Sequence record: OR995200.1
DNA length: 64,000 nucleotides
DNA from: Escherichia phage JY01
Direction: 5' to 3' (one strand)
Part shown: positions 10,569 through 14,186 of the stretch, piece by piece
Layout: each line of letters opens with the position of its first letter
Numbering within the stretch: position 1 is the first letter of the stretch
The notes under the pieces: model-generated
Told to the model about the DNA's origin: nothing
What the model saw: the letters and a program-made list of their open reading frames with translations, nothing else
The model's database searches: none
Program-made: the position numbers and the translations under genes

Positions 10569-11039
10569 TTAATCATGTTTCCACACCCCATCGGTATTTG
10601 ACCAAAGTCGCTGATTGTCTGATCCTCGCCACAGCTTTTTGGTCGGAAGATTTTTCTCATACTTCCCATCAATAATAACATCAACATATTTAAGCATTTC
10701 TAGTTGTTTAATATCTTCAAACTTATATCCTGTCCACAACCAAATGCTTTTATTGGGATAAAGATTTTTTACTGTTTGAACGATGCAATGAATAACATCT
10801 CGGTTATCAGGATAGAGAGGGTCACCTCCGGTTATAGTCAATCCTTCTATATAATCATTATTCAAACATTCAATCAATTGTTCTAGTGTTTCACCAGTGA
10901 ATGGAATACCATTTCTAGCATTCCATGTTGATTTATTATAACACCCTTCGCATTTATGCAAACAACCTGTGACGAAAAGAACGACCCTGCATCCAGGGCC
11001 ATTCACAAAATCACAGGGATAAAATCTATCATAATTCAT
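10569..11039 (-). CDS. nrdG: Anaerobic ribonucleotide reductase activating protein (radical SAM) NrdG
   Basis: 156-aa ORF with CX3CX2C cluster (CLHKCEGC); 4-nt overlap with nrdD stop. Confidence 0.9.
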   Translation of the reverse strand: MNYDRFYPCDFVNGPGCRVVLFVTGCLHKCEGCYNKSTWNARNGIPFTGETLEQLIECLNNDYIEGLTITGGDPLYPDNRDVIHCIVQTVKNLYPNKSIWLWTGYKFEDIKQLEMLKYVDVIIDGKYEKNLPTKKLWRGSDNQRLWSNTDGVWKHD

Positions 11040-12853
11040 TGGTGTTTAACCCTATGCATGATTTCTTTATTTTTACCGAGATTAAATCCGCGTTCGTTCG
11101 GATTTCCCAAATAACCACATGTTCTTCTTATGGTATTCATCTTTTTAGGATCAGTTTCTCCGCAAATAGAACAAACAAATCCGTTTTCAGTAGGAGTCAT
11201 TTCATGGGTACTTCCACATGTAAAACATTTATCTACTGGCATATTAACACCAAAATAATCTAAATGTTGTGCGGCATAATCCCATACAGCCTCAAGACCT
11301 TTTAAGTTATTTTTCATATCAGGAAGTTCAACATAAGAAATGTGACCACCTGTCGCAATGAAATGATATGGCGCTTCACGAGAAATCTTTTCAAACGGAG
11401 TAACATTTTCTTCTACTGAAACGTGGAAACTGTTAGTGTACCAGCCTTTATCAGTAACATCCTTTACACTTCCATATTTTTCTGTATCAAGTTTACAGAA
11501 GCGATAGCAAAGGTTTTCAGCAGGAGTAGAATACAAGCTAAAAGCAAATCCAGTTCTTTCAGTCCACTGTTTAAGATGAGCATTCATTTTAGTTAAAATT
11601 TCTTGCCCAATATCACGACCGACAAGAATATTCAATTCGTGAATACCAATGTATCCTAAAGACACTGAACTTCTACCGTTTTTAAATAACTCAATTATGT
11701 CGTCATCAGGTTTAAGACGAACCCCGAATGCACCTTCTTGGTAAAGAATAGGAGCAACAGTCGCTTTAACTCCTTTTAAGGAACTAATTCTACACATCAA
11801 AGCTTCAAAACATAAATCCATTCGCTCATTGAACAATTCAGTAAATTTCTGTTCATTGAACTGTGTTCCAATATAAGAATCTAACGCAATACGAGGAAGA
11901 TTCAGTGTTACAACACCAAGATTATTACGTCCATCAAGAATTTCATTGCCAGTCGAATCTTTCCATACGCTCAAGAAACTACGGCATCCCATCGGGGAAA
12001 CAGGAACAGATGAACCAGTGATAGCTTTATTGTTCTTAGCTGAAATAATATCAGGATACATCCTTTTGCTTGCACACTCTAAAGCAAGCTGCTTAATATC
12101 ATAGTTCGGATCGTCTTTATAAAGATTAACACCTTCTTCAACAAACATAACAAGCTTAGGGAAAATAGGAGTTATCCCATCACGACCAAGACCTTTAATA
12201 CGATTTTTCAAAATTGCTTTCTGAATCATTCGTTCAGTCCAGTCAGTTCCTGTACCAAATGTAATTGTTACAAAAGGAGTCTGTCCGTTTGAACTAAAGA
12301 GAGTATTTACTTCATATTCATAAGCTTGGAATGCATCGTATACGTCTTTTTCTGTTTTAGATTGGGCATAATTCAGTGCATCGGCGATTTGCCATTTTTC
12401 TGCGTCTTCGATATGTTTTGCATAGGTGCGTTTAACATAAGGAGAAAGTACTTTATCTACATTAGCAAAAGTCGTTCCGCCATATTGATGGGAAGCAACT
12501 TGCGCAGTAATTTGTGCCATAATTGCAGTAGCAACACCGATTGATTTAGGAGTTTCAATCTGCGCATTACCAAGCTTAAATCCGTTCTCAAGCATTCCTT
12601 TTAAATCTACTAAACAACAATTAGTAAATGGAAGAGCAGGGGAATAATCAATATCATGAAAATGAATAATTCCGCTTTCATGCGCTTTCATAATAAAAGA
12701 CGGGACCATATTTTTGGCAATGTGTTTAGACACAATACCAGCCATAAGGTCCCGTTGAGTTGGAAAAACACGAGAATCTTTATTAGCATTCTCGTTTAAA
12801 AGGTCTTTATTAGTTTTATGAATCAATCCTTCAATTTCTTTTTCAATTGTCAT
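11036..12853 (-). CDS. nrdD: Anaerobic ribonucleoside-triphosphate reductase NrdD, uninterrupted
   Basis: 605-aa ORF with C-terminal glycyl-radical motif RRTCGYLG and Cys-rich zinc ribbon (CFTCGSTHE...CSICGE). Confidence 0.93.
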   Translation of the reverse strand: MTIEKEIEGLIHKTNKDLLNENANKDSRVFPTQRDLMAGIVSKHIAKNMVPSFIMKAHESGIIHFHDIDYSPALPFTNCCLVDLKGMLENGFKLGNAQIETPKSIGVATAIMAQITAQVASHQYGGTTFANVDKVLSPYVKRTYAKHIEDAEKWQIADALNYAQSKTEKDVYDAFQAYEYEVNTLFSSNGQTPFVTITFGTGTDWTERMIQKAILKNRIKGLGRDGITPIFPKLVMFVEEGVNLYKDDPNYDIKQLALECASKRMYPDIISAKNNKAITGSSVPVSPMGCRSFLSVWKDSTGNEILDGRNNLGVVTLNLPRIALDSYIGTQFNEQKFTELFNERMDLCFEALMCRISSLKGVKATVAPILYQEGAFGVRLKPDDDIIELFKNGRSSVSLGYIGIHELNILVGRDIGQEILTKMNAHLKQWTERTGFAFSLYSTPAENLCYRFCKLDTEKYGSVKDVTDKGWYTNSFHVSVEENVTPFEKISREAPYHFIATGGHISYVELPDMKNNLKGLEAVWDYAAQHLDYFGVNMPVDKCFTCGSTHEMTPTENGFVCSICGETDPKKMNTIRRTCGYLGNPNERGFNLGKNKEIMHRVKHQ

Positions 12854-13323
12854 TTTAAACTCTTTCTAAGCTGCTTCTTAAATGAAGCTATTAATTGTGT
12901 TTTAGTGTCAGATTCATTATATTCAAATCCTCTTTGAAGCATCTCGGCCATCATTTCCTCTTTTCCTAAACGAGAAAATTCCTTTGATTTATCTCCAACA
13001 AAGTTAGGGTGAATATTATTTTGGGTGTAATCGGATTTTAAATAAGTAAGTAAATTTTCTAACCATTCAAGATAATCAACACCTTGTCCCTTTAAGCCAG
13101 AACGATTAAATTTATGCTTCATTTGACCTTCTGCGGCATTGCATAGATTACAAAGCAATCCACGTACCTTTCCTGCTTTTGGTCCATTTAATTCATGGTC
13201 ATGATCAAGATGATTAGCTTGAACATCAGGATTTAGTTCTCGTTGGCAAATTAAGCATTTACCGTTTTGTGCATTATAAAATTTTTGTTTTTCTTCTTTG
13301 TATAATTTGCCAGTCAATAACAT
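12850..13323 (-). CDS. 49: Endonuclease VII (Holliday junction resolvase) gp49
   Basis: 157-aa ORF recognised as T4 endo VII (MLLTGKLYKEEKQKFY…CLICQ…CNLCN zinc site). Confidence 0.9.
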   Translation of the reverse strand: MLLTGKLYKEEKQKFYNAQNGKCLICQRELNPDVQANHLDHDHELNGPKAGKVRGLLCNLCNAAEGQMKHKFNRSGLKGQGVDYLEWLENLLTYLKSDYTQNNIHPNFVGDKSKEFSRLGKEEMMAEMLQRGFEYNESDTKTQLIASFKKQLRKSLK

Positions 13324-13368
13324 AATAAAACCCTTACCTTAAATAGATAAGGGTATTTATTATTTTTA

Positions 13369-13411
13369 AGTATTGTAAAACATTCGATGCAATCGTTTAT
13401 ACTGTCGAATC
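13369..13411. repeat. Imperfect direct repeat, copy 1 (second copy at 13581-13624)
   Basis: About 43 nt aagtattgtaaaacatt(c/t)gatgcaatcg… shared with the pin 3' end, 4 mismatches, 212 nt apart. Confidence 0.8.
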
Positions 13412-13578
13412 ATCTTTTTAGTAGGACGAGAATAGGTTCCTACGCAAGTGGTCATATGAGGGTCCGTAGAATGTCCTTTAATAAAAAGTTTCCAAACCTT
13501 ACCGCCATTTAACTTTTCAGTATAAACCAATTCGGTTTTCATTAAAATGTCCTGTCAGAAAAAGAATTTTGAGTTTTT

Positions 13579-14064
13579 TCAAGTATTGTAAAACATTTGA
13601 TGCAATCGCTTATATTGCCGAATCTTTTGGTCAGAAAAAGAAATTTGAGTTTCAAGCCATTCAATGTACTCTGCGGCAGCTTGCATCAGGTTACCTTCAT
13701 AGCCATCGTTATTTTCTTGCGCAGCTAATTTAGCTAATGCGTATGAAATACGTTCACCTTGAAAAGCGGCTTTAGGATTCTGAACATCTTGGCTAGTTCT
13801 CTCTACAACTTCTTCAATTTCGCCATTTTCAACGGATTCAGTATTCCACAAACACCAGTATGTAATTGGCTTATCATAGATGTTAATAATCTTTCCGTCG
13901 GAAAGTTCAATTTCAATAATTCCAGTATCAGGTTCTATATCATCTTCGCATTCTTTTGCAAGTTCACGAACTTTAAAGACAGTACCTGCACTAAGTTCCG
14001 GCCAGTAATTACATAGCCCTGTATCAACACGATTAATTCTAAACCACTTATCTACTGTAATCAT
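13579..14064 (-). CDS. pin: Protease inhibitor Pin
   Basis: Track ORF trimmed to Met7 (MITVDKWF…), 161 aa, matching T4 pin size and position. Confidence 0.75.
   Translation of the reverse strand: MITVDKWFRINRVDTGLCNYWPELSAGTVFKVRELAKECEDDIEPDTGIIEIELSDGKIINIYDKPITYWCLWNTESVENGEIEEVVERTSQDVQNPKAAFQGERISYALAKLAAQENNDGYEGNLMQAAAEYIEWLETQISFSDQKIRQYKRLHQMFYNT
13581..13624. repeat. Imperfect direct repeat, copy 2 (encodes pin C-terminus)
   Basis: Matches 13369-13411; a second short repeat gtcagaaaaagaa(t/a)tttgagtt occurs at 13551-13572 and 13630-13652. Confidence 0.8.
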
Positions 14065-14186
14065 GTCCCATCTCCATATCAATTAAGTCATTTATCGTTG
14101 GTTCATTATATACTGTTTCTTCATCAGTGTAAACCGGTTCTTCCGGCTCTGGCTCTACAGTTTCCCATCTAGCCGCCCACCAAGGT

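Follow-up and report, generated by a model that had tools for sequence, protein, structure and literature searches.

A C-terminal tail common to pin and a neighbouring DUF7279 gene, and the probable origin of the repeats between gene 49 and pin in a Tequatrovirus

The repeated sequences between gene 49 and pin in the phage DNA analysed here (64,000 nucleotides of Escherichia phage JY01, hereafter the window) are best explained overall by a history that we consider likely: an ancestral pin gene of 148 codons and a separate small gene, orf58, would have been fused by a deletion, and the resulting T4-type allele would later have been joined to an unfused allele of the HY01 type, giving the arrangement of the window. 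The window belongs to the genus Tequatrovirus; nrdD, gene 49, the 58-codon ORF (orf58) and pin all lie on its minus strand, and positions 13300-13700 match several Tequatrovirus isolates at 100% identity and RB32 at 98.5%. The features of the region are the following.

11036-12853, minus strand: nrdD.
12850-13323, minus strand: gene 49 (endonuclease VII), an ORF of 157 aa, the downstream neighbour.
13330-13354, minus strand: terminator-like stem-loop of 10 pairs between the orf58 stop and the gene 49 start.
13366-13542, minus strand: orf58, 58 codons and a stop, ending ...KKMIRQYKRLHRMFYNT-stop.
13368-13411, minus strand: repeat copy B', the native orf58 tail, codons ...IRQYKRLHRMFYNT and part of the stop codon.
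13542-13574, minus strand: relic of an unfused pin 3' end, ACTCAAAATTCTTTTTCTGACAGGACATTTTAA (TQNSFSDRTF-stop), which includes copy A'.
13554-13576: repeat copy A', part of the relic of the unfused pin end.
13574-13579, minus strand: novel junction, an A6 run that links the pin stop (TGA, 13579-13581) to the relic.
13579-14064, minus strand: pin (PinA, Lon protease inhibitor family), T4-type fused form, 161 aa, ending ...SFSDQKIRQYKRLHQMFYNT-stop.
13579-13624, minus strand: repeat copy B, the captured orf58-type tail at the pin C-terminus, IRQYKRLHQMFYNT and the stop.
13630-13652, minus strand: repeat copy A, pin codons ...ETQISFSD, the final native pin segment before the fusion point.

Counting from the conserved ATG gives pin 161 aa; the program-made ORF list has it start at a TTG (14082). 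About 40 nt upstream of this ATG, inside a 49.1-like ORF, lies a near-consensus sigma-70-like promoter (14105-14133, minus strand; TTTACA, a 17-nt spacer and TATAAT, 11 of 12 matches); the total of promoter-like matches across the region was not above the expectation from shuffled sequences.

On the other side of the interval, every matching phage record names gene 49 as endonuclease VII, and the gene anchors the interval, outside the rearrangement. The stem-loop that precedes it (13322-13363 for the RNA fold) has a folding energy of -18.1 kcal/mol with a z-score of -4.97, and the 3' arm of its extended form reaches into the gene 49 start region. This structure is conserved in all four structural alleles described below (as represented by T4, HY01, RB32 and ECP2301) and forms their common downstream flank; some records annotate it as a terminator. 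In T4, a hairpin that governs the translation of gene 49 from long transcripts has been described. Further downstream, nrdD is one uninterrupted ORF of 605 codons in the window, the T4 record giving the gene as a two-piece join, and in phages MLP2 and Shinka a homing endonuclease CDS is found just beyond gene 49, where the window has nrdD. The window phage appears to be without the nrdD intron and its endonuclease.

Two pairs of direct repeats, which keep the same order and orientation as expected of unequal recombination or partial tandem duplication, are present between gene 49 and pin. The preliminary description had already noticed both, and its coordinates need only small corrections. The longer repeat, given there as 43 nt with four mismatches, indeed has four mismatches and extends over 44 nt (13368-13411 versus 13581-13624), with a start-to-start spacing of 213 and a weak extension to 63 nt at 83% identity (13349-13411 versus 13562-13624). 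The shorter one, given as 22 nt, does occur twice, with a first copy placed about 3 nt off (13551-13572); it covers 23 nt with one mismatch (13554-13576 versus 13630-13652) at a spacing of 76. Likewise, the small ORF described as having 59 codons at about 13364-13543 is present, with 58 codons and a stop at 13366-13542. In 300 dinucleotide-preserving shuffles of positions 13250-13800, the best pair of 44-mers had at least 16 mismatches (against 4 observed) and the best pair of 23-mers at least 4 (against 1), none of the 300 shuffles equalling the observed mismatch count for either pair; both repeat pairs are thus far beyond chance. A third candidate repeat (13467-13488 versus 13543-13564, 82% identity) was treated as a chance match. 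The 23-nt pair corresponds to the end of pin and its relic, and the 44-nt pair to the captured and the native tail: copy B' is kept in all DUF7279 homologues, and copy B is missing from the unfused pins of HY01, EcMI02, ECP2301, VR5 and SF.

The small ORF between gene 49 and pin is an old and conserved gene. It matches the Pfam family DUF7279 (PF23945) with 62.7 bits (cut-off 24.5; E = 3e-17) over profile positions 1-53 of 53, and PHROG 3272 with an E-value of 3.4e-34 over positions 1-58 of 59. Homologues of 54-62 aa, full length in each case, are found in four genera of the Tevenvirinae, a tblastn search retrieving 369 phage records, 363 of them with at least 80% coverage; in this search the identity was at least 90% in Tequatrovirus, about 76-84% in Dhakavirus, 42-58% in Mosigvirus and 38% in Gelderlandvirus. 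Over 28 pairs, dN/dS ranges from 0.03 to 0.51 and is mostly 0.1-0.3, with dS up to 0.88; the comparisons between Tequatrovirus and Dhakavirus give 0.14-0.30 at dS of 0.46-0.88. Read directly from these comparisons, orf58 is a genuine gene that evolves under purifying selection. We rejected the notion that it is a scar-derived ORF or a pseudogene, since it is present in genomes without the duplication and in other genera, and is under purifying selection. In phage MLP2, which carries the window type of arrangement, a 2-bp deletion in orf58 (GGAACCTTCTCG versus GGAACCTATTCTCG) leaves an annotated product of 40 aa; the truncated copy is a pseudogene, unless the sequence is in error.

The best-conserved part of the family is the tail, RPTK(K/R)MIRQYKRLHRxFYN, which is found in all four genera. 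In an alignment of nine close homologues (at the level of Tequatrovirus, Dhakavirus and SF-type Mosigvirus), residues R39, P40, T41, K42, I45, R46, K49, R50, H52, R53 and F55 are invariant. For the basic 58-aa protein, AlphaFold2 predicts beta-strands at 2-9, 15-22 and 31-36 and a single C-terminal helix at 42-56, from a shallow alignment and with a pLDDT of 81.7 for the best model and 55-63 for the other four. In this model, the tail common to orf58 and pin is the predicted C-terminal basic helix of orf58 (...MIRQYKRLHRMFYNT).

An exhaustive profile search against 1.8 billion representatives returned only 8 matches at E <= 1e-3, among which three long multi-repeat proteins looked spurious by Pfam scan; a word-indexed search with the orf58 family returned 10 clusters, all DUF7279, and two scans of IMG/VR added only 5 and 6 further loci. 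A sequence search of the PDB gave no match for orf58 or pin, and the fold matches of orf58 were only to sub-structures, so that no match in the profile, Pfam, PDB or fold searches assigns a function to orf58. DUF7279 was named in no paper in our literature search; the only match to the RB69/RB32 ORF names, 'Aeh1ORF087c', was unrelated.

The gene order pin - orf58 - gene 49 is kept in Mosigvirus SF and in Dhakavirus VR5, and the short pin of VR5 ends RFSDKAF-stop and overlaps orf58. In E33 (Dhakavirus), SHSML-52-1 and UTK0003, orf58 is present without an adjoining pin. In Escherichia phage JN02 (Mosigvirus), two divergent DUF7279 paralogues flank pin (906-1073 and 1501-1677), a SHSML-type copy directly upstream and a SF-type copy, unannotated in the record, directly downstream. 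This suggests that DUF7279 genes have been duplicated around pin before, and such copies could be recombination flanks for the gain or loss of pin.

The window pin matches PF10465 (Inhibitor_I24) with 159.9 bits (cut-off 27), its residues 4-141 aligning with positions 2-135 of the 136 in the profile, and PHROG 2167 over residues 1-146, whereas residues 147-161 match positions 44-58 of PHROG 3272. Both pin profiles stop at about residue 146, and native pins end ...SFSD(R/K)AF-stop (HY01, ECP2301 and Dhakavirus VR5). Since profiles and unfused pins end without the tail and the last 15 residues match the orf58 family, pin acquired the tail of orf58; the presence of the tail throughout the orf58 family, the membership of orf58 in DUF7279 and the purifying selection on it show the tail to be native to orf58. 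By this direct comparison of the sequences, the T4-type pin is a pin-orf58 fusion in which pin took the orf58 tail and not the reverse. The junction has the same length in all fused pins, which differ only by point substitutions (DRMIQQ, DQMIRQ, DQKIRQ), and this points to a single fusion event. In a small sample, the tail shows only synonymous changes in Tequatrovirus orf58 and the substitutions M44K, R46Q, H52N and R53Q in pin, three of them at positions (R46, H52 and R53) that are invariant in the closer orf58 homologues and the fourth at one that is nearly so; small as the sample is, these substitutions would fit a relaxed or altered constraint after capture.

The interval between pin and gene 49 is polymorphic among the phages in GenBank. 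Base-by-base reading of representatives distinguishes four structural alleles.

H allele: pin of 148 aa ending ...ETQ(I/N)SFSDRAF-stop, the stop overlapping the orf58 start (TAATG); orf58 ends ...KKMIRQYKRLHRMFYNT-stop. Members: HY01, Ec_MI-02 (EcMI02), HMD-9, Aplg8, IME537 and LF73P3.
T allele: pin of 161 aa ending ...SFSDRMIQQYKRLHQMFYNT-stop, without orf58. Members: T4, Shinka and IMG/VR contigs, with T2 and T6 by junction search.
E allele: pin of 148 aa, orf58 cleanly removed. Member: ECP2301.
W allele: T-type fused pin, then the 33-nt relic ACTCAAAATTCTTTTTCTGACAGGACATTTTAA (TQNSFSDRTF-stop), then an intact orf58. Members: the window, RB32, RB33, FN, WL-3 and MLP2.

The exact sizes of the differences can be read directly from these sequences. 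The H and T alleles differ by a 137-bp deletion (GACCGA/GCATTT ... AAAAAG/ATGATT) whose +2 frameshift leaves pin fused to the final 15 orf58 codons; H and E are separated by a deletion of 169 bp with an AAT microhomology. The W allele exceeds H by exactly 76 bp and T by exactly 213 bp, that is, by the two repeat spacings, and its relic matches the pin end of HY01, EcMI02 and LF73P3 (...ETQ(I/N)SFSDRAF-stop, with the TAATG overlap). The proposal of the preliminary description that a partial tandem duplication or a recombination scar lies between gene 49 and pin is therefore borne out, T4 lacking 213 bp and the HY01-type phages 76 bp, and the comparison with T4 and its relatives that it called for shows an arrangement that is not universal, a polymorphism with exact differences of 213 and 76 bp.

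The fused pin junction is present in 362 of 472 Tequatrovirus records. A 76-nt query across the W junction (13530-13605) matches 112 records with at least 80% coverage and 94.7-100% identity, which leaves about 250 T alleles (the fused total less W). About 110 records are unfused, split roughly equally between H (about 50-60) and E (about 50-60), both counts being approximate as the joining of BLAST pieces blurs the two classes. The W allele is common and far from universal. Its orf58 shows at least 99% identity across about 110 records, and a junction that hardly varies among its carriers indicates that the W form arose once and is no artefact. Another partial duplication at this locus is seen in Escherichia phage BYEP02 (OR757454, about 500-703), in which a T-type fused pin is followed by TGAAAATAAT, then some 70 nt from the 3' end of an E-type pin (AAAEYIEWLETQISFSDRAF-stop) and an E-type junction. 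Gene 49 is split into two CDS in this record, which may be a chimeric or low-quality assembly.

The order of events and the mode of joining that we infer from these alleles are as follows. In the ancestral layout, a pin of 148 aa (...SFSDRAF-stop) would have overlapped the separate gene orf58 (DUF7279) through TAATG. A deletion of 137 bp would then have taken out the stop of pin together with orf58 codons 1-43, placing pin in frame with the last 15 orf58 codons, as in the 161-aa PinA of T4, with loss of orf58. In a second step, a T4-type allele would have been joined illegitimately, just past its stop and within the A-run, to an unfused allele at ...TQNSFSD, producing in succession a fused pin, the 33-nt relic, an intact orf58 and gene 49. 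Illegitimate joining of a T4-type and an unfused-type allele is the most likely source of W. Against it stands the junction itself: a CTTGAAA motif adjoins both W breakpoints, but the run has 5-6 A where 3 are expected. A clean microhomology junction at CTTGAAA was given little weight in view of these 2-3 extra A, and we call the join illegitimate since the junction is not the clean product of this microhomology. The run has 6 A in the window and RB32 and 5 A in FN, a variation among W phages that is expected of slippage in non-coding sequence. Frameshifting or read-through from pin into orf58 over the A6 run was rejected, as the frames allow only a 12-residue extension ending at TAA. A donor unfused allele combining the exact window orf58 haplotype (GHSTDPHM, TAA stop) with the AGGACA leader was not found.

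The order of the two steps could also be different. A tandem duplication of about 210 bp (from the end of pin through orf58) may have come first, followed by a 137-bp deletion in the first orf58 copy that gave W, with T-type alleles arising later by recombination between the tail copies and H-type alleles able to re-arise through the 23-nt repeat. We regard this order as unlikely. It needs a number of events similar to that of the favoured one, W turns into T or H when exactly one spacing, of 213 or 76 bp respectively, is lost, a deletion within a duplicated copy costs no gene function, and DUF7279 appears to have been duplicated around pin before, in JN02. Moreover, the tail of Shinka, a T allele, carries the markers of the W orf58 copy (AAA, CGA and the TAA stop), as expected of a crossover between tail copies, showing that exchange across the tail repeats occurs. 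However, no Tequatrovirus allele with two full tandem copies of orf58 was seen, nor any 148-aa pin with the window AGGACA leader among the sampled partial matches. The sampled T alleles (T4 and four IMG/VR contigs) have TGA followed by AAATAATAAATA, as in the 3' end of H-type orf58 in the unfused alleles, whereas the orf58 copy of the window has TAA followed by AAAATAATAAA; because of this 3' context, simple deletion from the present window haplotype does not account for these T alleles. The T allele is also the most numerous (about 250 records, T2, T4 and T6 among its carriers), and the identity of at least 99% among W-type orf58 copies suggests a young haplotype. Fusion before juxtaposition is favoured on these three grounds, namely the context of the stop codon, the abundance of T and the uniformity of the W orf58.

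The juxtaposition would also have changed the expression of orf58. In H alleles, orf58 is probably coupled translationally to pin through TAATG; in W alleles, pin ends 36 nt upstream of orf58 and the relic would act as an untranslated leader. In W, the relic carries a Shine-Dalgarno-like AGGA motif 7 nt before the orf58 ATG, and it differs from the H-type pin end only 8-13 nt before the ATG, where CGAGCA (H) is replaced by AGGACA (window), AGGGCA (FN) or AAGGCA (WL-3). The anti-Shine-Dalgarno duplex is modestly stronger in W (-3.0 to -4.0 kcal/mol) than in H (-2.2 to -2.8 kcal/mol). Since IME537, an H phage, also uses AGG as an Arg codon in its coding pin end, part of the leader change may predate the juxtaposition. 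With a difference of 1-2 kcal/mol, these values are suggestive at most of a Shine-Dalgarno compensation in the W leader.

Another question is whether the capture was adaptive. The tail could be a portable module under selection, namely a basic amphipathic helix with a binding partner common to both proteins, in which case both its uptake by pin and its persistence beside orf58 would be adaptive and not neutral side effects of recombination; we find this doubtful, and somewhat less probable than the duplication-first order. All fused pins examined keep the fused frame open, and fused pins are the majority (362 of 472); the tail is the most conserved part of orf58 and its single predicted helix; and pin and DUF7279 genes adjoin in three genera, with translational overlap in two. 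On the other hand, the tail in pin is altered at residues that are invariant in orf58 (R46Q, H52N, R53Q), and neither protein has a sequence match in the PDB, the fold matches of orf58 being limited to sub-structures. Furthermore, about 110 Tequatrovirus records keep a tail-less pin, which argues that a functional pin gene can do without the tail. A more specific version, more doubtful still, would make the 15-residue basic helix a transferable interaction module and DUF7279 proteins the partners or co-factors of pin in host proteostasis (with Lon or another AAA+ machine), the binding of T4 PinA being partly owed to the captured helix. If this reading were true, the W allele would have been selected for restoring a free small protein while keeping a tailed inhibitor.

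The preliminary description had proposed that a duplication of the pin 3' end created the small ORF, which would then be a new and probably non-functional 58-codon ORF with a pin-like C-terminus. This accounts for the 14 C-terminal residues common to both proteins and for a second, pin-derived repeat between them, but the polarity has to be reversed, as the ORF is a DUF7279 gene found in four genera. The HY01-type phages have orf58 without a fused pin; orf58 always carries the tail, including in Dhakavirus (E33, where no pin adjoins), Mosigvirus and Gelderlandvirus; and orf58 passes the DUF7279 threshold with dN/dS of about 0.1-0.3, while the pin models exclude the tail. Recent transfer of the DUF7279 genes of the other genera from a window-type Tequatrovirus is argued against by identities of 38-80%, and we consider the whole proposal very improbable. 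An assembly or sequencing artefact, in which two co-cultured phages were collapsed into one contig, is hardly credible: chimeras may exist at this locus, as in BYEP02 with its T-type pin next to a pin-only fragment and its split gene 49, but the W junction occurs, with minor variants, in 112 phages sequenced independently from many laboratories and hosts, RB32 and RB33 included.

The favoured history, with fusion followed by juxtaposition, corrects the direction of the apparent duplication, and the comparison shows that the textbook Lon inhibitor of T4, PinA, bears a C-terminal segment foreign to the pin family. For the mapping of the PinA-Lon interface and for PinA modelling, pins of both kinds, with the tail (161 aa) and without it (148 aa), exist in nature and are directly comparable. 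The locus also offers a countable example of the reshuffling of small-gene alleles in T-even phages within a few hundred bases, by fusion, clean deletion and heteroallelic juxtaposition. The arrangement of the window is an ordinary polymorphism of phage microevolution and recombination, found in over 100 genomes whose deposited records already annotate it, and the processes are those of standard phage genetics: deletion fusion, clean microhomology deletion and partial heteroallelic duplication.

Among known systems, the closest is T4 PinA itself, whose binding and inhibition of the E. coli Lon protease are known from literature cited in PMC8835725. The window pin is its near-identical orthologue, 161 aa long with the same fused C-terminus and with point changes at the junction only (DRMIQQ in T4, DQKIRQ in the window). 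What the present comparison adds to the knowledge of PinA is that its last 15 residues are foreign to the pin family and derive from a DUF7279 neighbour; in a literature search of partial coverage, we found no paper on a pin fusion or on a fusion origin of the PinA C-terminus. In RB32, RB32ORF078c has the same sequence as the window orf58, in the same layout, and its GenBank note ('similar to RB69ORF087c, JS98orf087clike, pin') records the similarity and leaves it unexplained.

In T-even phages, partial tandem duplications arise by illegitimate or unequal recombination. The window resembles them in its in-register direct repeats, its novel junction and the existence of alleles that lack one repeat unit; it differs in that its units come from a fused and an unfused allele, which makes it a heteroallelic juxtaposition and not a simple duplication. 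With repeats as short as 23 nt and 44 nt (4 mismatches in the 44-nt pair), the allele should be fairly stable. The fusion itself recalls the classical r1589 deletion of T4 rII, which reportedly joins the rIIA and rIIB cistrons: in both cases an upstream stop and a downstream start are deleted, with in-frame read-through into the C-terminal part of the downstream gene. Unlike r1589, the pin fusion is a natural allele that has become the majority form of its genus, and it retains only 15 codons of the downstream gene.
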